A DNA stretch of 64,000 nucleotides, taken from positions 1 to 64,000 of the IMG/VR virus record IMGVR_UViG_3300027747_002969; one strand, 5' to 3'. A model generated the notes under the pieces. The model was not told the origin of the DNA. It worked only from the letters and a program-made list of their open reading frames with translations, and searched no databases. The translations under genes were made by a program, and so were the position numbers. This document shows, piece after piece, positions 2,832-29,226 of the stretch; the stretch's first letter is position 1, and every line of letters starts with the position of its first letter. Origin of the DNA: a virus.

Positions 2832-3653
2832 TCACTCAACAGACGTGCCGCATTTGACTTTTTTACTTTTTGTTAAAACACCAAAATCCACTGACCATTC
2901 GTGGCCAACGGCCAATTCGCTAGCATCAGATGGCAGACCAAAAACAATCCCGGTGATCTGTTGGACCTGAGCAAATGGCATGCGAAATTTGGTGAGATCA
3001 TTGCCAAGATTTGGGTAAGGGGTAATATGTGGAATAACCCAGGCTGCTATCTGTTTGGTGTTGTCGTCTATTACAATTTTGTACATGGCATGTGGGACAA
3101 CCACACCGTGTCCTATGGTCCTGTCCCCTGGCCCATATATGTTGCCCACATATATCGTGAATGTGTGCCCAGTTTCAACAGCCCAACCACGCACTGAAGT
3201 TTCTAGGAGTTTCCAAATGCCCCGGTTGAATGACGGTGCCTGTGGCGACATGTTGGTCATTAAGAAACTTTCTGTTTCAGCCTGTTGATCAAAACTCATA
3301 TCTCCGTCGCTGACATTATGTCCTTGGTCAAAACCAGATCCTGCATAGTCTTGTGGTGTAGCACTGCCAGGCATGCTTTGGTCTGCGGCAAATGCATTTG
3401 AACGAGGCAAACAGCCCAGAGCATGCTCAGGTGTTAAAGTATAAACGACCCACAGAGGTATTTTAGCTATTGGATCAACAAACACAGCATAGGCATGACG
3501 GCATAGAGTCACCCCATTGTGCGCAATCTGCGGAAAACCCCACGGAGCCTGTGACGAACAAGCAGCAATTGGCTGTGCAGGGGCTTGTTGGTTTGCCAAG
3601 GCTGGATATATGGCTAGAAACATCAACGCAGCAATGGCAAAGATTTTTTTCAT
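2832..3653 (-). CDS. Exported DNA/RNA non-specific endonuclease (NucA/Serratia type)
   Basis: Signal peptide [20 protein letters not shown]; DQGH (DRGH variant); [15 protein letters not shown]. Confidence 0.85.
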
Positions 3654-3728
3654 CAAGTGGCCTCAGTCTTTCATTTAACTATTTATCTTCGAATCATCAC
3701 TAGATATAGCAGTAATAAATACACTATA

Positions 3729-6590
3729 ATGTCAGCATTTCCCGCAAATCCATTTGATGGCCAAATCTACAGCATAGGCCCAAGATCCTGGACATGGTCG
3801 TCAATACAACAGGGTTGGTTATTGAACAACAACGCCGCAACAGGCCCAACCGGAGTAACTGGCCCGCAGGGTGTACCAGGTGTGTTGTTGACTACACTGG
3901 TCGTTAATAGTTTTATAGGTGACGGTAATACCGTTGTATACACACTGACAACCTCTCCCCAAAGTGTCTATAACACCATATTGAACGTTGACGGGTTGGT
4001 ACAGACACCAAATATCAATTATACTATTAGTGGCACAACTTTGACATTGGCGGCGCCCCCTGTAACCAATGCCACGATAGATATTACAATATTTCTAACA
4101 GGCGCGCCTGTGACAGGACCAGCGGGCGGAATAGGCCCCACTGGCTACACAGGACCAACAGGCAGTAGAGGACAAGCATCAACTATAACCGGTCCAACTG
4201 GTTGGACTGGACCATCTGGTGGCCCCACAGGCAACACAGGGCCAACTGGTCCTCTGGGCGGACCATCTGGTGCTACCGGCTCAACGGGTGCCACTGGACC
4301 ATACGGCTGCAGCGGGTACAGTGGGTTTTCAGGATTCAGTGGCTTAATCGGCTGTTCTGGTTTGAGCGGCTTCAGTGGGTTTTCAGGATTCAGTGGCCTA
4401 ATCGGCTGTTCTGGTTTGAGCGGCTTTAGTGGGTTTTCAGGATTCAGTGGCTTTGGTGGGTGTAGTGGTTACAGCGGCTACAGTGGGTGCAGTGGTTACA
4501 GTGGTTACAGCGGCTACAGCGGCTACAGTGGGTGCAGTGGTTACAGCGGCTACAGTGGGTGCAGTGGTTACAGCGGCTACAGTGGGTGCAGTGGTTACAG
4601 CGGCTTTAGTGGGCATTCGGGATACAGTGGCTATGGAGCAACTGGTGCCACCGGAGCAGCCAGTACAGTAACAGGTCCAACAGGCCCTACAGGTCCAAGC
4701 GGTACTGCTGGATCAACTGGAGCGACTGGTTCTACAGGTGCAGGTGCCACAGGCCCTACGGGACCTATACCAAATAGTCCTCCAGTGAGTGGCAGTGCTT
4801 ATCAAGCAGTCGGTACGATCTCAATACCAGGTAATACACCAGTTATAGTAGTAACGTTTACATTACCAAGTGCGGGTACCTGGGATGTGAGTTATTGGAT
4901 GCGTGCACAAAGCACAAACGCTGCATTTGCAGGTGAGTTTGCGCTGTATGATCCAACTGGTACACTTGTTCCCAACAGCGCAATACTCAGTTATTATAAC
5001 ACTACTGTGGCTTCGCAAAGCAGTACAGGCACCGGCCGCATAATACTTACTACTACCGGTAGCGCAACCTATACCATGCGAGCATTTGCAAGTACAGGCA
5101 GTTATAGCAGCTTTATTGACGCCAATGGAACTACCGGTGTCACTTGGGTTCAACTTACTGGAGGCTACGTAGGGGCCACCGGACCAACTGGCACAGGCGT
5201 TACTGGACCAACAGGGGTAAACGGTTTATCAGGTGCAACAGGATCAACTGGTCCAACTGGGCCAGCAGGCGGCGGTGGCACGGGCAACTACAGCAACACC
5301 AACGTGGCCAGCTATCTCAGCGGCCCAGTGGTCATAGGCAATCTCAGCATAACCAACACAACGCCGGCTACAAGCAGCACAAGCGGTGCGCTCACAGTAG
5401 CAGGTGGTGTGGGTATAGTTGGAAACCTCTACGTTGGCAGCAACATAGTTGTATCAGGCAACATCACAGCTGCAAACATCAACGGCAACATCAACATCAC
5501 AGGCAATGTTACAGGTACTAGTAATAATGTACAGCTAGTTGCTGGATCATACAGTTGGACGTTTGACAACACTGGCAACCTAACACTGACCAACACAGGT
5601 GTGATCGCCACTACTGGCAACACCAACATCAGTTTGGATCCAGCCGGCAGCGGACAGGTAAATGTGTTAGGTAATCTGAGTACACTTGGTTATGGACTAT
5701 TTACTGGAACATTTAATGAAACGGCCAATGTAGCCGGTGTCTACGTTGGTAATACAGGCACTGGCGGATCTCAAACTCCAAGAGTGTTGTTTGCCAATGG
5801 CAATGTCACACAAAACTGGGAAATAGATAATTCAAATGGAGTGTTCCGGTGGTATCAGCCAGGCGTGACCAAGATGACTCTGGATGGCAATGCTAACCTT
5901 GCAGTCACCGGCACTCTAGCAGTAACCGGAGCTATAACCACACCCAGCACTATAACCACTCAGAGCACCATAATAGGCAATGCTTCAGTGGCATTCACCG
6001 CAGGTTTGGCAGCAGCAGGTAACGTAGCACTGTTGATGAACAGCAACATGGCCGTGCGCGACAACAGCGTCAACTACACAACCATGTACATGGATCTAGG
6101 CACTGGTGGATCAGCAGGAGGTGCATTCCAGTTCAGAGGTACAAGCAGTTATACTCAATGGGCAGTGATAGGATCTAATGGTATTACGCTGCCAACTCGT
6201 CCAGCAGTGAGAATTACCGCCAGCACCAGCAACAATTTTACTGCTACTACAACAATAACCAACCAGTTGGTGGACTACAACCAAGGTGGATATTACAACA
6301 ACAGCACAGGAGTGTTCACTGCCCCCATTGCCGGATTGTATCAGGCGTTTATGAACCTGCGCATATCAGGTGGCTCTGGATCTGCTGCTGCTGCTATGAA
6401 GAAAAACGGAACTGGCGGCACACAGGTACTGTATTGGGAGACCAGTGCAGGCAATCTCAGCGGGCCCACGCACTGGGGGGTAAGCGGAATACTCAAACTC
6501 AATACTAATGATACCCTGCAGGTAGTTGTTACCAACGGTACTATTACCTTTGACAGCAACGACAGTTGGGGTGTTGCCTACATAGGATAA
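3729..6590 (+). CDS. Collagen-like fibre/virion structural protein with C-terminal C1q/TNF-like domain
   Basis: G-X-T and G-X-S triplet runs; [17 protein letters not shown]...LNTNDTL C1q-like signature; start placed at ATG 3729 after TAAATA. Confidence 0.75.
4305..4635 (+). repeat. 9-bp-periodic tandem repeat encoding G-(Y/F/C/L)-S triplets, including a 54-bp duplication
   Basis: agtggttac / agcggctac / agtgggtgc units; [15 protein letters not shown] occurs twice. Confidence 0.9.
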
Positions 6591-7381: not shown

Positions 7382-8062
7382 ATGGCCGTTACAAACAGCA
7401 CAGGCACTACGGGACCAACCGGACCAACCGGACGTGCCGGATCGCAAGGGAACATAGGCAGCACAGGACCAACTGGTACAGCTGGTCCTACAGGGCCAAC
7501 AGGTAGATCCAACACAGGACCTACTGGCGTGCAGGGATCTCAAGGATCTCAAGGCAATCAAGGTGTTACTGGCCCTACAGGCAGCATCGGCCCACAGGGT
7601 GCAACTGGTGCAACGGGTGTAGCCGGTGCGGCCGGTGCGGCTACTATGACAGGAGCAACTGGCCCTGCTGGTGCAGGCACACTGTCTGCTCGTACCACAA
7701 TCACTGCGACCACTCCAACAATGTTGGTAAACAACTCCAGTATCATTAGTACCACAGCCTATCATGGTTTCAACATCTATTCTATACAAACCAGTAGTGC
7801 TGCTTGGGTTACGGTATATAACACCAGCACTGCTGCAACAGCCGATACCGGCAGGTCAATTTCTATCGATCCTGTCCCAGGTAGCGGTGTAATTGCCGAA
7901 GCCATAACAACGGGAGCACAAACTGTCAACTTCACACCCTGTGTTGGCGGTTACCTTAATAATTCTCCGCCAAACACCACTCTTTCAATGAAGGTTGTCA
8001 ACACTGGTAATAGTGCTGCTGCAATCACAGTCACGTTGACCGTCCTACAGACTGAGGTCTAA
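7382..8062 (+). CDS. Short collagen-like structural protein
   Basis: About 30 G-X-Y triplets, then a beta-rich C-terminal domain; RBS aggag. Confidence 0.7.
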
Positions 8063-8063
8063 T

Positions 8064-9773
8064 ATGAATACCAACAAGCGAGTGCTGCTGACCAACAGCA
8101 GCAACACCGTACCAAAGGACTCTACCACTGTACCAGCAGATCTTGGCCAGATCGCCACGGCAGTTATGCTGTTGCGTCGGCAGCAGTTTGATGGCCTATC
8201 AATGCAACAGCATGCAGATGCCATCATAGCAGGTAAACGCAGTGACACACTCTCTTATTCAGAGTTTGCACAACGTTACAGCAGCAGTGCAGAAGATCTA
8301 GAACATGCTGTTGGTTTTGCTAGATATTTTGGCCTTACTGTGATTGAAAGCAGTGCCGCTGCTGCCATGGTAAAGGTCCGCGGTACGGTGAAACAATTAA
8401 ATACAGCATTTCAAACACAATTGTTGACCATAGAATCCAACGGCAAGACCTGGATGGGCTATGATGGCATCTTGACTATCCCCGAATCACTTTATCAGGT
8501 GGTTGAATATGTCATCGGACTCAACAATCCAGCAACCATGCGGCATCTCTTGACCAAACCAAAACAACCAACTGCCGCAGTGTCTGCATCTGCTGGCCTT
8601 GCAAGTTTGACTCCAATTCAAGTAGCTGCTGCATATAATTTTCCAGCCAGCAGTGGCTACGGCCAATGCATAGGTCTGATCGAATACGGTGGAGGCTATA
8701 CTGCTCAAAATATAACCAGCAGTTTTTCGGCCATAGGCCTGTCAAATCCACAGGTGGTTTCTATTCCTGTTGACACAGGCACAAATGACCCATCAGATGC
8801 TGACAGTTCTGGTGAGGTCATGCTGGATATTTTCATTGCAGGAGCAGTGGTTCCACATGCAAAGATTGCAGTGTACTTTGGTGCAGGGGCAGGTAATCCA
8901 CTGCCAGGTCCCAACTGGTATGACCCCATTAACACAGCTATACACGACCGTGTTAATGCACCCTGTGTGCTCAGCATCAGTTGGGGAGAATCAGAAGCGG
9001 CCTTTGGCCGTGTCAACATGCAGGCCATGGACATGGTGTTGTCACAGGCTGCGTTATTGGGCATTACAGTATGCGCAGCATCAGGCGACAGCGGTTCAAC
9101 ATGGGATGGTCTAGGTGTTGAAGTCCTATATCCGGCATCTAGCCCCTATGTACTGTCATGCGGTGGAACTTCATTGTTGTTGAATGGCTCGGCCATAGCC
9201 AGTGAAGTGGTTTGGAACCAATCACGCGCTCAAGCAGGTGCTACTGGTGGAGGAATCAGCATTTATGAATCCAAACCTCCATATCAAACTGGTTTGACCT
9301 ACAAACTGTATCCCAGCAATACTGTGACTAGCCTAGCAACACGCGGTGTCCCAGATGTGGCTGGTAATGCAGACCCGTTCAGCGGCTATAGTTTTTACTA
9401 CAGCAACAGAAATCTAGCAGCATCACAAGTGGGAGGTACCAGTGCTGTGGCACCATTATGGGCTGGTTTGATCGCAAGATTAGTCTGCTTAACTGGCAAA
9501 AACCTAGGACTGGTCAACACACTGCTCTACAGTTCTCCTGCGGTGTTTAACGATGTCATCAGTGGCCAAAATGTCTATACTCCCAGCAGTGTCACCACAG
9601 GTTACAGTGCCACTACTGGTTGGGATGCCTGCACCGGCCTTGGCAGTCCAAATGGCACTAAGATTCTGCTGTTGATCAGGAAAGGTCCCGTGTGGCCCAA
9701 GAACAATTATGGTTTCCGTCCCAGCAGTGGCGCAGTTTGGCCTCGTACCAACACAGGTGTTAGACAAGTCTAG
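8064..9773 (+). CDS. Sedolisin/kumamolisin (S53) serine-carboxyl peptidase with prodomain
   Basis: EVMLD (Glu/Asp), AASGDSG (oxyanion Asp), GGTSAVAP (Ser), GWDACTGLGSP calcium site. Confidence 0.92.
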   Translation: MNTNKRVLLTNSSNTVPKDSTTVPADLGQIATAVMLLRRQQFDGLSMQQHADAIIAGKRSDTLSYSEFAQRYSSSAEDLEHAVGFARYFGLTVIESSAAAAMVKVRGTVKQLNTAFQTQLLTIESNGKTWMGYDGILTIPESLYQVVEYVIGLNNPATMRHLLTKPKQPTAAVSASAGLASLTPIQVAAAYNFPASSGYGQCIGLIEYGGGYTAQNITSSFSAIGLSNPQVVSIPVDTGTNDPSDADSSGEVMLDIFIAGAVVPHAKIAVYFGAGAGNPLPGPNWYDPINTAIHDRVNAPCVLSISWGESEAAFGRVNMQAMDMVLSQAALLGITVCAASGDSGSTWDGLGVEVLYPASSPYVLSCGGTSLLLNGSAIASEVVWNQSRAQAGATGGGISIYESKPPYQTGLTYKLYPSNTVTSLATRGVPDVAGNADPFSGYSFYYSNRNLAASQVGGTSAVAPLWAGLIARLVCLTGKNLGLVNTLLYSSPAVFNDVISGQNVYTPSSVTTGYSATTGWDACTGLGSPNGTKILLLIRKGPVWPKNNYGFRPSSGAVWPRTNTGVRQV

Positions 9774-23341: not shown

Positions 23342-24343
23342 ATGAAAAAATGGATCTTCATCACCGGAGGATGCGGCTACATAGGCAGCCATGTAGCAGC
23401 TGAAATCAAAGACAAGACTGACTATTCGGTGCTGTTGATCGATCGACGTGCTAAAGAATTAGTACACACTACTAAATTCTGCGATATGGTAGCCGATGAG
23501 GATTTTGCCAGCAAGGTCAGCCAGGAAGCCATTCGCGAATATCGACCAGAAACTGTGATACATCTGGCTGCCAACAGCACGATTGGTTCCAGTATGACCA
23601 ATCCTGCTGGCACCTGGGAAAACAACGTGACCAAAATGCAGCAGTTGCTGTCATGCTGTGTGCAGAATCAAATTCGCAATGTAATTTTTGCCAGCAGCAG
23701 TTCGGTTTATGCAGATCAACATGTGGCCATTGATGAATCGCATGCATTGTCCCCCTACAGTCCATATGCTACTACAAAGATGGTTGGCGAAATGATGCTG
23801 AGAGATTGGTACGGGGCGCATGGTATACGCAGCCTAAGCCTGCGTTTTTTCAACGTAGCAGGAGCACATACCAAATACGATCTTGGAGAGTTGCAGGGCA
23901 GCAGCCATTTGATGGCCAAGATTATGGAAAGTGTAGTAGATGGCCGTGATTTCACTGTATGGGGCAGGGACTGGCCTACTCCGGACAAGACTGCCATACG
24001 TGACTATACGCATGTCTTAGACATTACCGATGCAGTCTTATTGGCAATAAAATGGCTGCCAAACAATCACGGCGCGCATGTGATGAATCTTGGCGGTGGC
24101 CAAGGTCGCAGTGTACAGCAAATGATCAACACTACCGAACTGTTGTTGAGCAAACAACTGCCATATCGATACGGCAATCGTTTGGATGGAGATAGTGCCA
24201 TGAGATTTTCCAACAATGCTTGTGCATTAAAACTACTGGGTTGGCAACCCAGTCGTGGATTAAATGACATCATTTTGGACAGTTTCAAATGGTACAACAG
24301 TGACATGTATCGTTCATTAACGCAAGCAAAAATTGTCTATTGA
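23342..24343 (+). CDS. galE: UDP-glucose 4-epimerase
   Basis: TGGCGYIGSH, SSSSVY, YATTK, RFFNVAGA, IRDYTHV. Confidence 0.88.
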   Translation: MKKWIFITGGCGYIGSHVAAEIKDKTDYSVLLIDRRAKELVHTTKFCDMVADEDFASKVSQEAIREYRPETVIHLAANSTIGSSMTNPAGTWENNVTKMQQLLSCCVQNQIRNVIFASSSSVYADQHVAIDESHALSPYSPYATTKMVGEMMLRDWYGAHGIRSLSLRFFNVAGAHTKYDLGELQGSSHLMAKIMESVVDGRDFTVWGRDWPTPDKTAIRDYTHVLDITDAVLLAIKWLPNNHGAHVMNLGGGQGRSVQQMINTTELLLSKQLPYRYGNRLDGDSAMRFSNNACALKLLGWQPSRGLNDIILDSFKWYNSDMYRSLTQAKIVY

Positions 24344-24387
24344 ATGTCTCTGATAGAGAGATTATAACTGAGTTAGGAGGTACAGAC

Positions 24388-26082
24388 ATGTATGTTGATG
24401 CATTCTATGAACGTGATAAAAATCAAATATTAGTAGTAGAGCGCAACCGCGCTGGCAAACGCATCTACAACCAATTTCCTACCAAATACTGTGTGTATTG
24501 GCCCAGCGCTCGTGGCAAGTTTAAGAATATCTACGGTACTGCCTGTGAAAAGTATCAAACTACTAAACTGAAAGAATTTACACGAGAAATTAATATCATT
24601 CCCAAGTTGACTCAGCATGAATCGGATATCAATCCAGTGTTCCGCTGCTTCTATGACAACTACAAGGGTGTACCGGGACCAGACCTGCATGTGGCTTTTT
24701 TTGACATTGAAACTGACTTTGATCCTTTACGTGGGTTTTCCAGCACAGATGATGCATTTTCGCCAATAACTGCCATCTCAATCTATCTCAAATGGTTGGA
24801 AAGAAACTTTACCATGGTGATCAAACCCAAAGACATGGATCAAACCACTGCTGAAGAAATTGTAGCCAAATTTGCCGATACAGTTCTGTGTGAAAGCGAA
24901 AAAGAACTGCTAGAACTGTTTCTGGGCATCATAGATGATGCTGATGTGCTGAGTGGTTGGAATTCCGAAGGCTATGATATTCCCTATATACACAATCGCA
25001 TAGTACAGGTCTTGGGCAAGGAAGAAACACGCAAGTTGTGTCTCTGGGGAAAATATCCCAAGCGGCGTGAATACGAAGCCTATGGACGTCAGACTGTGAC
25101 GTATGATCTAGTTGGTAGGATACACCTTGATTATCTACAACTGTATCGCAAAAATACCTATCATGAAATGCACAGTTATCGTTTGGACTTTGTGGGAGAA
25201 TATGAAGTTGGTGATAAGAAAACACATTACGAAGGCAGTTTAGATAGTCTCTACAACAACGATTTTGAAAGATTCATAGAATATAATCGCCAAGACGTCA
25301 TGTTGTTGGTAAAGATCGATGCTAAAAACAAGTTCATAGAACTCAGCAACAATCTAGCACATGAAAACTGTGTGCTGCTGCCAACCACTATGGGTGCAGT
25401 GGGGTTGATCGACCAGGCTATTGTTAACGAATCTTGGGATCTTGGATTTGTTGTACCAAATCGCAAGAATGATCGCGCGAAACACCGCAGTGACGACGAC
25501 GATGAGGATGACGATTCGGTCGACATATCTGGTGTGGTTGGGGCATATGTGGCTGATCCAAAACAGGGCATGCATGATTGGATTGGCGGTGTTGACATCA
25601 ACAGTCTCTATCCCAGTGCCATTCGTGCACTGAATATGAGTCCGGAGACTATCGTTGGCCATATCCGCCCAGAAAGCACCGACAAGCTCATCACCAAACG
25701 CATGAAGTCTGAAAAAAAATCATTTGCTGATGCGTGGAACAGCATGTTTGGCACATTGGAATATAACCAAGTGATTAATCAAGATCTCACACCAATAACA
25801 GTGGATTTTGAAGACGGTAACAGTCAAACTGTGTCAGCCAGTGAACTGTATGATTTGGTTTTCAAAAGTGGTAAGAATCTCATACTCAGTGCCAATGGTA
25901 CTATATTTACCGGTGACAAGCAGGGCATTATACCCGGTCTGTTGAGTCGTTGGTACAGCGAGAGAAAAGAACTGCAGGCTGAGATGCGACGATATGGGGA
26001 TCTCTGTGCCAACGGCATAGAATTGTCAGCTGATCTAGCAGATGAGGTTAGACAGATCCTTGCTGCAAACCAGACAACCTAA
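24388..26082 (+). CDS. polB: Family B DNA polymerase, N-terminal subunit (exonuclease, motif A, first fingers helix)
   Basis: FFDIETD, WNSEGYDIPY, YNRQDV, DINSLYPSAI, IIPGLLSRWYSERK; RBS aggagg. Confidence 0.93.
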   Translation: MYVDAFYERDKNQILVVERNRAGKRIYNQFPTKYCVYWPSARGKFKNIYGTACEKYQTTKLKEFTREINIIPKLTQHESDINPVFRCFYDNYKGVPGPDLHVAFFDIETDFDPLRGFSSTDDAFSPITAISIYLKWLERNFTMVIKPKDMDQTTAEEIVAKFADTVLCESEKELLELFLGIIDDADVLSGWNSEGYDIPYIHNRIVQVLGKEETRKLCLWGKYPKRREYEAYGRQTVTYDLVGRIHLDYLQLYRKNTYHEMHSYRLDFVGEYEVGDKKTHYEGSLDSLYNNDFERFIEYNRQDVMLLVKIDAKNKFIELSNNLAHENCVLLPTTMGAVGLIDQAIVNESWDLGFVVPNRKNDRAKHRSDDDDEDDDSVDISGVVGAYVADPKQGMHDWIGGVDINSLYPSAIRALNMSPETIVGHIRPESTDKLITKRMKSEKKSFADAWNSMFGTLEYNQVINQDLTPITVDFEDGNSQTVSASELYDLVFKSGKNLILSANGTIFTGDKQGIIPGLLSRWYSERKELQAEMRRYGDLCANGIELSADLADEVRQILAANQTT

Positions 26083-26112
26083 GTTTGATCATTGCATCGT
26101 TTTGGTTGGCTG

Positions 26113-26142
26113 TTGACATATCATCAACAGGTTTGGTATATT
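26113..26142 (+). promoter_or_regulatory. Internal sigma70-like promoter upstream of the second polymerase gene
   Basis: TTGACA-N18-TATATT with TG extension; ggag RBS at 26157. Confidence 0.45.
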
Positions 26143-26166
26143 ATGATGAACAATATGGAGCTCCAA

Positions 26167-26359
26167 ATGGAAACAATTGACAGCTTGGTAAAGAAACGGG
26201 ATGCTCGGGGTATAGCAGCATTTATCGAATCCAATGGATTGGCTCTAAACGAGTCCAATCGCATGACAGCCGTATCGAGTCAAGCCAAAACTCGCTGCAA
26301 GCGCCAACAAGACTTCTATGATCAGCGCCAGCTTATCAAGAAAATCTTGCTTAATTCGT
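26167..26359 (+). CDS. polB: DNA polymerase piece 2, exon 1 (second fingers helix, motif B QLIKKILLNS)
   Basis: Ends ...DQRQLIKKILLNS plus t; splicing to tg-tat-gga gives NSLYGA. Confidence 0.85.
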
Positions 26360-26613
26360 AGATCTGCGACGCTGATTGGCAACAATCAGATGACAACTGC
26401 TCTAATTGCTGGAAACTCCCTGACAGGGACAATCAGCAGCCAAGCGTTGGAAACAACGAAGGTTCAACGACTAGATCGAAAGATCGTAGATCCAAGTGGA
26501 TCGAAATGGGCAGCATCCCACGTGGATGGTGATATAGTCTCCTCTGCATGGTAACATGCAGCAGTGCTGTTAAAGCACGGGGCAGCATTAACGACGCTGT
26601 CTGAAGATCAAGG
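26360..26613 (+). mobile_element. Group I self-splicing intron (IA-like, no ORF) in polymerase motif B
   Basis: P AATTGCTGGAAA 26404, Q AATCAGCAG 26431, R GTTCAACGACTA 26462, S GATATAGTC 26531; P1 with U26359-G26366 wobble; P3 CTGCTC/GGGCAG; terminal G; removal restores the reading frame. Confidence 0.92.
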
Positions 26614-27131
26614 TGTATGGAGCTATTGGTAATCCCAGCTCAAGGTTCGCAGACAACCGAGTGGCACAGAGCACCACTTTGACTGGTCGTTGCATTGTCA
26701 AACACATGGCAGGAAAGATTAATGAAACGATTGCAGGCGATTACAATCACACAGGGGTATCAATAATTTACGGGGATACCGATTCGGTTGACGCCGAATC
26801 AATTATTAGAACCAATTTAGGTGATAAAACTGTTGAAGACTTGTTTCTGAGTGGTAGTCTTTTTTGGCAAGAGGGCAACAAGGAATATTCAAGAAACGAT
26901 GCAGTCCAAGTTGTCAGCTATCTTCCTGAAGAAAACAAGACAACTCTGTCCAAATATAATTATGTCTATCGTCATAAGGTACGGAAAAAGAAATATAGGA
27001 TTACCACGTCTAGTGGCAAATCAGTTATTGTTACTGAAGACCATTCAGTTATGGTGTTGATTGATGGACAACTGGTAGAAAAAAAGCCAACTCAGTTGAC
27101 AAAAAATGATAAGGTTATTACCTTGTCATAA
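26614..27131 (+). CDS. polB: DNA polymerase piece 2, exon 2 (LYGA...YGDTD) fused to the N-intein
   Basis: YGAIGN, TTLTGR, IIYGDTD, followed by intein sequence. Confidence 0.9.
26784..27128 (+). mobile_element. Split intein N-fragment (115 aa, Ser1, no Cys)
   Basis: Block A SVDAESII directly after YGDTD; block B VTEDHSVMV; stop codon follows. Confidence 0.9.
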
Positions 27132-27189
27132 ACAATTGTTCAACTATGCTGCGCCTGGTGTGTTGGGTTTGGTTAACGGATTCAACACA

Positions 27190-27293
27190 CTAAGATCAAG
27201 GTCGCCACAGAAAGATGCTTTTAAGTGAAATAGTTTGCTGGAGAGAATTTGAAAATTCTCAAACAAATCATAGAGGAAGGTTTTAAATGGTGA
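27190..27293 (+). pseudogene. Decayed 3' remnant of a Vsr/EDxHD-like homing endonuclease
   Basis: Broken-frame translation KIKVATERCF*VK/(I)VCWREFENS/KQIIEEGFKW resembles the C-terminus of Vsr-like HEGs. Confidence 0.4.
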
Positions 27294-27418
27294 ACCACCT
27301 AATAGAGACGATTGAATCAATTGAAGAATTGGGAGAATTTGAAGATGAGTATGTCTATGACATAGGTATTGATCCAACTCACCCCTACTTCTTTGCAAAT
27401 GATGTTTTGGTTCACAAC
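27287..27418 (+). mobile_element. Split intein C-fragment (44 aa, ends His-Asn, +1 Ser)
   Basis: Block F YVYDIG, block G FFANDVLVHN/S. Confidence 0.92.
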
Positions 27419-28270
27419 TCCGCTTATTTCTCGGCCTATCCGGTGATGAAAGATTCACCAGATTTCCAAGACTTTGAATGGACCAAGGAAGCAGTGGTAG
27501 AACTCTATGACAAGATTGGAGACATAACCAATGCCAGTTTTCCTGATTTTATGCGTGCAGCTTTCAATTGTCAGCCCAGCAGTGGAGCCATTATACGTGC
27601 AGCGCGAGAACTCTGCGCACTGAAAGGTCTATTCATTACTAAAAAACGCTATGCTGTTTTGATCTATGACAAAGAAGGCAAGAGGAAAGATTCCAATGGC
27701 AAGCCAGGTGAGATCAAAGCCATGGGTCTTGATCTCAAACGCAGCGATACTCCCAAGATCGTGCAGGATTTTCTCAGTGACATCTTGGTTGATGTATTAA
27801 CTGGCAGTACAGAACGGGACATTCAACAGAAAATTCTAGAATTCCGCAAGGAATTTCGCAGTTGGCCTGGTTGGCTCAAGGGTTCTCCCAAGCGTGCCAA
27901 CAAGATTACACACTATCAAAACATCATCAACAGTCAGGGTCCGCGAGGTACCATTCCCGGACATGTGCTGGCCAGCATCAACTGGAATCGATTGAAAAAG
28001 ATCTATGGCGATCATTATAGCCAGTCAATACAAGATGGTGCCAAAGTCATAGTGTGTAAATTGCGATCCAATCCCAGTGGCTTAACATCCGTAGCATATC
28101 CTGTTGATGAATTGACACTGCCGCAATGGTTCAAAGATCTACCATTTGATGAAGAAGCAATGGAGTCAGCATTGATTGACAAGAAGTGTCAAAACCTTCT
28201 GGGAGTGCTGTCATGGGACCTCGAGTCAAATCGCGAGAACAGCAGTTTCAGCGATCTATTCAGTTTTTAA
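27287..28270 (+). CDS. polB: DNA polymerase piece 3: C-intein plus palm remainder and thumb
   Basis: HN|SAYF junction; KKRYA, KAMGLDLKRSDTP, PGHV; RBS gaggaagg. Confidence 0.92.
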   Translation: MVNHLIETIESIEELGEFEDEYVYDIGIDPTHPYFFANDVLVHNSAYFSAYPVMKDSPDFQDFEWTKEAVVELYDKIGDITNASFPDFMRAAFNCQPSSGAIIRAARELCALKGLFITKKRYAVLIYDKEGKRKDSNGKPGEIKAMGLDLKRSDTPKIVQDFLSDILVDVLTGSTERDIQQKILEFRKEFRSWPGWLKGSPKRANKITHYQNIINSQGPRGTIPGHVLASINWNRLKKIYGDHYSQSIQDGAKVIVCKLRSNPSGLTSVAYPVDELTLPQWFKDLPFDEEAMESALIDKKCQNLLGVLSWDLESNRENSSFSDLFSF

Positions 28271-28288
28271 AACAAGGAACAGCAAATA

Positions 28289-28492
28289 ATGGCCACTAAA
28301 CCCACTACGATATACTCTCCAACTGATCTCAAAACACTTGTTGACGCACTCAATGGAGCGCCATCATACTTGTCAAAGCGATTCATACTGAAGTGGCTCT
28401 GCGGTTGGACAGACGAAATGATCGAAACCAACATGCGTATGAAACAGGAAGAAGACTATCAACACAAGACTGGAGAAAAGACATGGCGTTAA
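28289..28492 (+). CDS. Hypothetical protein
   Basis: RBS aagga; fills the gap between polymerase and clamp. Confidence 0.55.
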   Translation: MATKPTTIYSPTDLKTLVDALNGAPSYLSKRFILKWLCGWTDEMIETNMRMKQEEDYQHKTGEKTWR

Positions 28493-29226
28493 AAGACTAT
28501 ATCAAAGACCTTACCACCTACGTGACTCCCACGGGGTTTTTTGACAAGATCAAGGTAGCGGCTACTACCAAAGAAATCACAGTTGAAGCCATGGAAAAGG
28601 AAAAGGAAGTGATTCTCAAGGGTCGCTTTACCAAACCTTTGAGCGACCTTACTGGCGAGTTTGGGCTCAGTAATCTTTCACTGCTGCAGACTATCACCGG
28701 CGATCAGCAATTTCCTCATGCCGAAAGCACACTTGCCATCACCTATGAGTCCAAAGCAGCAGAAAAGATCCCAACTGAACTGGCCTATCAAAACAAAAGC
28801 AAAAGCCATATCAACTATCGATTCATGGCCAAACAACTGCTGCCAGACCAGCCCAAGTTTATGGAGCCCAAGTGGGATGTCACAGTAACACCCAGCAAGG
28901 CCAACATACAGCAGTTGACCTGGGCAGCCAATGGTCTTGGTACCTATGAGCAGTATTTCATTCCCAAGATTGTGGATGGAGACCTCATGTTTTTCATCGG
29001 TGAAGACAATGCAGCAACACAGCGCGGTGGGGTAGTATTTGCCAGCGAACGCAGTGAAACATTTGTCAGCGATCACAAATGGAAGATTGCGCAGATACTG
29101 TCGGTTTTGAAATTGGCAGACACCTGTGATTGCGAAATGTCTTTTTCTATCAAAGGTGCTATTCAAATCACCCTCAATACTGGTGTAGGAACCTATCGTT
29201 ATATTTTCCCTGCAAAAGTGCGTTGA
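28483..29226 (+). CDS. Putative sliding clamp (gp45-like)
   Basis: About 247 aa beta-rich protein near the polymerase; GEFGLSNL, INYRFM, YRYIFPA. Confidence 0.65.
   Translation: MALKDYIKDLTTYVTPTGFFDKIKVAATTKEITVEAMEKEKEVILKGRFTKPLSDLTGEFGLSNLSLLQTITGDQQFPHAESTLAITYESKAAEKIPTELAYQNKSKSHINYRFMAKQLLPDQPKFMEPKWDVTVTPSKANIQQLTWAANGLGTYEQYFIPKIVDGDLMFFIGEDNAATQRGGVVFASERSETFVSDHKWKIAQILSVLKLADTCDCEMSFSIKGAIQITLNTGVGTYRYIFPAKVR

Follow-up and report, generated by a model that had tools for sequence, protein, structure and literature searches.

The DNA analyzed here, called the window, comprises positions 1 to 64,000 of the 84,333-bp IMG/VR record IMGVR_UViG_3300027747_002969, which CheckV rates as about 20% complete. 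Between positions 24388 and 28270 it carries, in three genes on the plus strand (A, B, and C), what is most probably the replicative family B DNA polymerase (PolB) of an uncultured jumbo phage from fresh water, whose relatives include Agrobacterium phage Atu_ph07, Sinorhizobium phage Phosso, and Pseudomonas phage PA5oct. DNA of the window was found in freshwater metagenomes (14 sequencing runs from 10 studies), and a megablast search of 24300–28300 against named phages gave no near-identical match. The polymerase is broken at three points, by a gap between genes A and B, by a group I intron within gene B, and by a split intein shared between genes B and C. This anatomy, the homology of the parts, their conservation in relatives, and the support for the assembly are established, as described in turn.

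Gene A (24388–26082, 564 amino acids [aa]) encodes the N-terminal domain, the 3′–5′ exonuclease, motif A (DINSLYPS), the first fingers helix, and about 29 aa of an insert at the tip of the fingers, and it ends with a TAA stop codon at 26080. After a spacer of 84 nucleotides (nt) between the cistrons (26083–26166) follows gene B (26167–27131). Its first exon (26167–26359) contributes 64 aa, namely the remaining fingers-tip insert and the second fingers helix up to KKILLNS, as well as the first base of a leucine codon. The intron (26360–26613) is 254 nt long, contains no open reading frame (ORF), and is located in motif B between NS and LYG. The polymerase part of the second exon (26614–26783) holds the remaining motif B and reaches through YGDTD (motif C), after which the N-terminal half of the intein (N-intein, 26784–27131) adds 115 aa and a stop codon. 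The spacer between the intein halves (27132–27286) measures 155 nt and has no ORF; GAGGAAGG lies upstream of the ATG of gene C. Gene C (27287–28270) begins with the C-terminal half of the intein (C-intein, 27287–27418, 44 aa), and its polymerase part (27419–28270, 283 aa and a stop codon) starts with the +1 Ser of YGDTD-S and comprises KKRY, the remaining palm, and the thumb.

Read as plain frames, the ORF from the ATG at 26167 closes with KKILLNS-TAG at 26361, and the next ORF (26613–27131) leads from YGAIGN to IIYGDTD and through 115 more residues. Pfam profiles follow one another across the pieces: gene A matches PF03104 (E 1.3e-19) and profile positions 19–143 of PF00136, the ORF at 26613–27131 matches positions 164–232 of PF00136 and then Intein_splicing, and gene C matches positions 121–155 of Intein_splicing and then positions 276–343 of PF00136. 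The same order was obtained by blastp against the single-ORF, 1012-aa polymerase of Phosso, where residues 2–557 of gene A align with residues 3–581, residues 3–122 of the spliced gene B with 597–714, and residues 44–327 of gene C with 713–1012. With intron and intein taken out, the pieces are collinear end to end with this unbroken polymerase, and nothing is lost at either junction. No single piece contains a frameshift or a stop within it, and Exo I, motif A, motif B, motif C (YGDTD), and KKRY, which define a family B polymerase, are all intact. Apart from these pieces, nothing in the 84-kb record matches PF00136; PF03104 matches once, and neither a PolA nor a further intein is present. In G001, a relative of 452,799 bp that is rated 100% complete and whose gene C is 78% identical, a polB with a split intein is likewise the only PolB. 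The gene of the window is very likely functional.

The breaks were also present in independently assembled DNA. Contigs of run X4, which stems from a separate study and year, tile all of 24300–28300 in overlapping pieces; a contig of 10,220 nt spans the stop at 26080 and another of 4,688 nt the stop at 27129, both unchanged, and a G>A variant at position 26361 still leaves a stop codon. Contigs of runs X5 and X7 agree wherever they cover 24300–28300, and none of the contigs covering this region skips the intron or the intein. In the polymerase-coding parts, the strain differences amount to 23 synonymous versus 4 non-synonymous codons, some of the compared contigs having a depth below 5 and possibly containing errors; purifying selection acts on these parts. 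All seven strain-variable codons in the last 100 nt of exon 1 are synonymous. Six further strain changes are non-coding.

A sequence-only reading of the window had laid out genes A, B, and C in this way, with a group I intron in motif B and an N- and a C-intein after YGDTD, and had taken the gene to be intact rather than a pseudogene. The layout is borne out by the ORFs and Pfam profiles, the intron by Rfam (83 bits against 50), and the intein by its motifs and its matches to the structure 9HTH. Intactness agrees with the collinearity with Phosso, the complete set of motifs, the purifying selection, and the recurrence of the layout in relatives. The same reading had raised misassembly and a separate intact polB as concerns; the X4 contigs keep the stops at 26080 and 27129 and a stop at 26361, and there is no separate intact polB in the 84-kb record.

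Relatives were searched in IMG/VR with gene C; 397 were found, and the best 80 of these were classified by mapping the polymerase pieces of the window onto them and reading their open frames. Ranking by gene C biases the 80 toward loci with a C-intein. At least one interruption was seen in 30 of the 80. All three breaks occur in four loci (L010, L032, L061, and L062), while the A-B break and the intron, with no intein, are found in another four (L015, L017, L028, and L053), and L033 combines the A-B break and the intron with a contiguous mini-intein. Ten loci with fused A and B have the split intein only (L008, L009, L011, L012, L016, L021, L024, L035, L036, and L038); in two (L013 and L014) a split intein is visible and the locus ends at the contig end. 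A contiguous mini-intein in a single ORF (L037) and an A-B break with two tandem inteins (L052) were each found once. Seven loci (L056, L065, L066, L069, L070, L073, and L074) carry another break, near residue 112, with an HNH gene, and 50 have a single open frame, some of them ending at contig ends. Relatives at about 60–80% protein identity show every presence/absence combination of the breaks. The intron was seen only together with the A-B break (nine of nine intron-bearing loci among the 80); in seven of these nine it was verified by Rfam, and in L028 and L062 it was assigned from near-identical maps.

The intron of the window is recognized by Rfam RF00028 (Intron_gpI) at 26350–26561 over the full model (1–253), scoring 83 bits against a cut-off of 50 (E 1e-20). 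There was no other Rfam match at E ≤ 1 in 24000–29000 and none at gathering level in the whole window. U26359, the last base of exon 1, is able to form a U·G pair in a P1 of 4 bp (UCGU with GCGA), and the last base of the intron is G26613. Joining T26359 to TG at 26614–26615 yields a Leu codon, which restores NS-L-YGA and removes the in-frame TAG. Rfam detected the intron in all seven loci where the map had predicted one and in none of five other loci that were scanned. In six loci (L010, L015, L017, L032, L033, and L053) the insertion site is the same and NS-L-YGA is restored, and the intron of L061 sits 3 nt downstream of the site of the window. L053 has a synonymously altered last exon codon (TCG>TCC), and its guide has changed in compensation (GCGA>GGGA), so that P1 is kept. 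RNAalifold, run on six sequences (the window and five loci, L017 being left out), predicted 81 pairs, of which 26 have compensatory changes. The intron is a folded RNA conserved at a defined position, and these features suggest that it splices.

Strain differences are clustered beside the 5′ splice site (26334–26364), where nine base changes affect seven codons within the last 26 nt of exon 1, all synonymously. Contigs from three runs additionally show changes and a 1-nt insertion in the P1 loop. The pattern of the cluster is like that of a co-conversion tract or of exchanged intron variants.

The N-intein starts with Ser1 directly after YGDTD, contains the Arg-His motif (NX, defined after PMC10189870) and TEDH (block B), is free of cysteine, and has a net charge of +8 in its last 60 aa. 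The C-intein has blocks F and G and a terminal His-Asn followed by the +1 Ser, contains no cysteine either, and has a net charge of −11. For both halves the best match in the PDB is 9HTH (N-intein, E 1.5e-11; C-intein, E 1.7e-5), the PolB1 intein of Aes123, which is reported to be naturally split (120 + 39 aa) and cysteine-less, to trans-splice in vitro, and to belong to the PolB genes of T4-like Aeromonas salmonicida phages (PMC11923092; PMC13014065). The halves of the window have the charge pattern of Aes123, and the insertion site, DTD/S, is common to both. By its motifs, its homology to 9HTH, its site, its distribution over two ORFs, and the opposite charges of its halves, the element is a class 1 Ser1/Ser+1 split intein, and the split falls at the usual endonuclease position of inteins. 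Trans-splicing of the 115- and 44-aa halves may be expected from the activity demonstrated for the homologous intein of Aes123.

In the distinct inteins of relatives, which are about 40–75% identical, Ser1, Arg-His, T-x-x-H, blocks F and G, His-Asn, and +1 Ser/Thr are kept, with the exception of Lys-Asn in L033. A tblastn search with the N-intein returned 23 phage records, comprising 11 from Pseudomonas, 10 from Aeromonas, Salicola phage SCTP-2, and Lak-C1. The intein blocks published for MIJ3, a Pseudomonas phage related to PA5oct, are close to those of the window (PMC6892783). A second intein type occurs in L010, L014, L033, L035, and L037; it is inserted at YGD/TDS, two residues upstream of the site used in the window, has a +1 Thr, and is about 40% identical to the N-intein of the window. 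The copy in L033 has Lys in place of the penultimate His. In L052 (5617–6597), two mini-inteins stand in tandem in one ORF, at YGD/TDS and then at YGDTD/S, separated by two polymerase residues (Thr-Asp).

The third break separates two cistrons that share a reading frame. The TAA of gene A is followed by a second in-frame stop, TGA at 26086–26088, and gene B has its own GGAG and ATG. The spacer contains a 7-bp hairpin (26110–26130) and a promoter-like TTGACA-18-TATATT (26113–26142) that matches at 11 of 12 positions; the region holds 7 such sites compared with 9.3 expected from shuffles, and we treat the promoter-like site as a lead, not as a finding. The break lies in the linker of the fingers-tip insert, an element of about 70 aa that is specific to this polymerase group. 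Fused forms of 1012 aa (Phosso, L039, and L040) have the same insert, and the break point corresponds to its linker in L040; shorter unbroken relatives (about 890–950 aa) have no fingers-tip insert. In seven IMG/VR loci with the A-B break, the tail of A and the head of B are conserved, and a separate ATG and ribosome-binding site are present in each. Since the gap ORF of L032 and L033 is encoded on the opposite strand, one continuous translation of A and B is ruled out in these two. The break is of the gp43A/gp43B type known from Aeromonas phages: it is situated in the fingers, the downstream cistron has its own start and ribosome-binding site, and the arrangement is kept in relatives. By analogy, A and B would associate non-covalently, as reported for gp43A and gp43B. 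For phage 25, these two proteins are described as co-purifying with polymerase activity (PMC2988022; PMC2677866).

Both spacers of the window are short, and in relatives the corresponding gaps contain genes. Triple-broken relatives have inserts of 1.0–1.2 kb with ORFs in both gaps, and A-B gap inserts across the relatives measure 1.0–1.4 kb, again with an ORF. The ORFs between the intein halves are homologous to one another and to the ‘putative VSR endonuclease’ of Aes123; matches to this Vsr-like endonuclease have E values of 1e-37 to 1e-43 for five full-length ORFs and of 1e-19 for the truncated ORF of L021. The ORFs in the A-B gap are of at least three unrelated kinds. Fractured genes, in which a free-standing (Vsr-like) homing endonuclease gene lies between split-intein genes, are described by Dassa et al. 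(2009; PMC2677866). Like these and the split intein of Nanoarchaeum equitans PolB, the intein of the window is split at the endonuclease position and resides in a replication gene. The window differs from a fractured gene as defined there in that its 155-nt spacer has no ORF, while its relatives do have the Vsr-like gene. It corresponds to step III of the Dassa model, in which the endonuclease gene is lost, with the halves still adjacent.

The 155-nt spacer was compared with the relatives' endonuclease genes. A tblastn search with the Vsr-like ORFs gave weak collinear matches with E values of about 0.03–0.05 in a tiny search space. Restricted strictly to the 155 nt, the best protein match scored 18.9 bits, which was equalled by 12 of 300 dinucleotide shuffles. 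At the DNA level, only short, unconvincing matches to the gaps of five relatives were found; of 200 shuffles, 4 equalled the best match to L021 and 6 that to L008, and these two top matches lie away from the expected ends of the endonuclease gene.

Several further observations concern the gap genes and the history of these loci. In L021, a 397-aa TnpB/IS605 OrfB-like gene (4286–5479; PF01385, E 8e-21; PF07282; PF12323) is present between the split-intein genes and adjoins the truncated Vsr-like endonuclease ORF (5483–6019). The A-B gap of L033 contains, on the minus strand (3591–4868), a 425-aa ORF with DUF723 repeats that is related (E 2e-19) to the 560-aa ‘Hef-like homing endonuclease’ located between the intein halves of PA5oct (L003, 6405–8087); by this kinship, one kind of endonuclease occurs at two different polymerase breaks. 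At the residue-112 break (gene A numbering), the gap holds a 246-aa HNH-like ORF, which in L056 lies at 3643–4369; Rfam found no intron in L056 at gathering level. A comparison of L032 with L008 showed 83% identical DNA from the intein through gene C and 71% in gene A, and L008 has none of the fingers insert, the cistron break, and the intron, all of which are present in L032. This contrast indicates a mosaic history of the polymerase gene. Some 900 nt downstream of the polymerase gene of L038, extra short fragments (7892–8213) in two frames resemble the C-terminal end of the polymerase.

The same three breaks are known from the gene 43 polymerase (gp43) of T4-like Aeromonas phages. The complete genome of Aes508 (GenBank JN377894.1, also NC_019543.1) has, in this order, gp43A, a Seg-like GIY-YIG gene, gp43B-1, a Vsr-like ORF, and gp43B-2; its annotation calls ‘gp34B-1 [sic]’ an N-terminal fragment with a group I intron and an N-intein and gp43B-2 a C-terminal fragment with a C-intein. 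Aes517 (JN377904.1) is arranged similarly, with endonuclease genes in the gaps. In Aes516 (JN377905.1), the three genes are Gp43A, Gp43B2, and, between them, Gp43B1, which ‘contains putative intron and N-intein’; neither gap holds an endonuclease gene. Rfam detected the intron in both Aes516 and Aes517, at 78 and 70.7 bits, and gave no intron match in Aes123, which is annotated without one. We found no printed discussion of the triple break as such in the literature searched, where two papers on Aeromonas phages mention neither inteins nor introns, and its record is thus the GenBank annotation. The sequence-only reading had known of no described case with all three interruptions in one enzyme. 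This part of its interpretation is refuted by Aes508, Aes516, and Aes517, while the sequence features and the relatives uphold the other part, an intact gene needing three joining steps.

Aes516 is the closest counterpart of the window. It too has three genes, a fingers-tip break, a short spacer with a hairpin (53 nt in Aes516), an intron in motif B, and a split Ser1 intein at DTD/S, and both endonuclease genes are absent, whereas Aes508 and Aes517 carry them. Its intein halves are homologous to those of the window (N-intein, E 1.4e-14). However, its T4-like gp43 shares only about 30% identity with the jumbo-phage PolB, its intron lies after YGA, 12 nt downstream of the NS^L site of the window, and gp43 does not have the insert of about 70 aa that hosts the break in the window. 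Petrov, Ratnayaka, and Karam (2010) reportedly found that an untranslated spacer divides gene 43 of the Aeromonas phages 44RR and 25 into 43A and 43B, phage 25 also having a group I intron and a seg-like endonuclease gene. Phage 25 resembles the window in its cistron split and in the intron of the downstream cistron, but neither 44RR nor 25 has an intein, and their polymerase lineage is a different one.

Within the polymerase group of the window, the PolB of PA5oct, like that of MIJ3 (PMC6892783), is 46% identical to gene A and has a homologous N-intein (41%, E 5.6e-27) at the same site, YGDTD/S; unlike in the window, A and B are fused, there is no intron, and a 560-aa endonuclease gene separates the intein halves. 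Salicola phage SCTP-2 has the contiguous mini-intein form. The polymerase of Atu_ph07 is encoded by two genes (565 + 417 aa) that are broken at the homologous point of the fingers insert, with 48.5% identity over gene A; unlike the locus of the window, it has neither intron nor intein, and the gap is 18 nt. Introns and inteins at high density are likewise reported in the polymerase genes of crAss-like and Jug phages.

Taken together, we assign a probability of roughly 85% to the reading that the locus encodes the replicative family B DNA polymerase of an uncultured jumbo phage from fresh water, that it is broken at three points by traces of mobile elements, and that its pieces would be rejoined by subunit association, RNA splicing, and protein splicing. 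The break in the fingers-tip insert would yield subunit A and a separately translated gene B, whose products would join non-covalently. The 254-nt intron would splice itself from the transcript of gene B, whereby the TAG would be removed and NS-L-YGA restored. Finally, the oppositely charged, cysteine-free Ser1/Ser+1 intein halves would dock and trans-splice B and C into a chain of 404 aa. The mature enzyme would then consist of two subunits, A and the ligated B-C.

Some observations weigh against this reading. The P1 of the intron is short (4 pairs), and no clear P10 was found in the intron sequence. On the called ORF at 26613–27131, Intein_splicing scores 35.4 bits, just below the cut-off of 35.8 (37.2 bits when read through the stops). 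Strain differences in the intein halves comprise 1 synonymous versus 3 non-synonymous codons; because these are so few and come from low-depth contigs, selection on the intein itself is unsupported at strain scale. No RNA runs are listed among the 14 runs of the 10 studies. The contact between A and B in this enzyme is drawn from precedent. Moreover, since the record represents about 20% of the genome, a second polymerase could exist elsewhere.

It is rather improbable that the intein halves dock without splicing and the enzyme is built of three non-covalent chains, A, B, and C. The intein of Aes123 is reported to be only about 30% efficient in vitro with purified precursors (PMC11923092), and three of the four strain-variable codons in the intein halves are non-synonymous, which would fit such an enzyme, but the catalytic Ser1, Arg-His, TEDH, His-Asn, and +1 Ser are all intact and are conserved in relatives about 40–75% identical in the intein. 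Furthermore, the intein separates the catalytic Asp residues from the Ser of motif C, and a domain of 159 aa left in place there would occupy the active site. That polB is decaying and silent, and that another polymerase in the unseen 80% of the genome replicates it, appears very unlikely. The incompleteness of the record leaves room for such an enzyme, and some jumbo phages have extra polymerase-like genes, such as a PolA-like gene nearby in SCTP-2; against this stand pieces free of frameshifts and internal stops, intact motifs, the ratio of 23 synonymous to 4 non-synonymous codons, a layout kept in diverged relatives, the complete relative G001 without another PolB, and a record without PolA.

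A and B might instead be joined by readthrough, by ribosomal bypass, or by an undetected intron or intein in the 84-nt gap, as their common frame and the hairpin could suggest. Yet there are two different in-frame stops, TAA and then TGA, gene B has its own GGAG and ATG, no Rfam match was found in the gap at E ≤ 1, and neither end has intein motifs. Relatives have an ORF-bearing insert of 1.0–1.4 kb at this place, on the opposite strand in L032 and L033, and Atu_ph07 and the Aeromonas phages are annotated with two genes, so that we give this explanation even less credit. The least probable is that the breaks are artefacts of assembly or sequencing, such as false stops or a chimeric contig. The DNA does come from a metagenome assembly, and none of the comparison contigs spans the whole stretch, but the X4 contigs from another study and year cover 24300–28300 with the stops at 26080 and 27129, G>A at 26361 is still a stop, X5 and X7 agree, and the same breaks recur in independent IMG/VR contigs.

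With regard to the role of the breaks, it could be imagined that the endonuclease genes were lost and that the intron and the split intein were kept because polymerase output came to depend on them, as a timer or host-state gate in which replication waits for intron splicing and for the concentration of the intein halves. We consider this quite unlikely, and the idea of an environmental gate, raised by the sequence-only reading, finds no support in this analysis. Instead, all combinations occur in the relatives, whose gaps hold homing endonuclease genes; this speaks for selfish mobile elements and not for a regulatory device, and over all loci the pattern is one of mobile elements gained and lost. 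A weaker reading, which is better supported than the gate, is that two cassettes appear to pass from one polymerase to another, even between lineages that share only about 30% identity, namely those of T4-like Aeromonas phages and freshwater jumbo phages. One cassette would consist of the fingers break, its endonuclease gene, and the motif B intron, and the other of the intein and the Vsr-like endonuclease gene.

The triple break was known before from T4-like Aeromonas phages, and the locus of the window adds no new kind of mechanism. New are its occurrence in a distant polymerase lineage of jumbo phages, which shares about 30% identity with the Aeromonas one, and its endonuclease-free state in this lineage. 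The locus also adds a natural split intein without cysteine to the Aes123 PolB1 type, a class wanted for protein ligation under oxidizing conditions. Broken polymerases of this type are common in freshwater metagenomes, and the relatives form a natural series of unbroken genes, genes that are split only, split with an intron, with an intein only, or with all three interruptions, and with or without endonuclease genes. This series could serve to study how mobile elements accumulate in one essential gene and lose their endonuclease genes.

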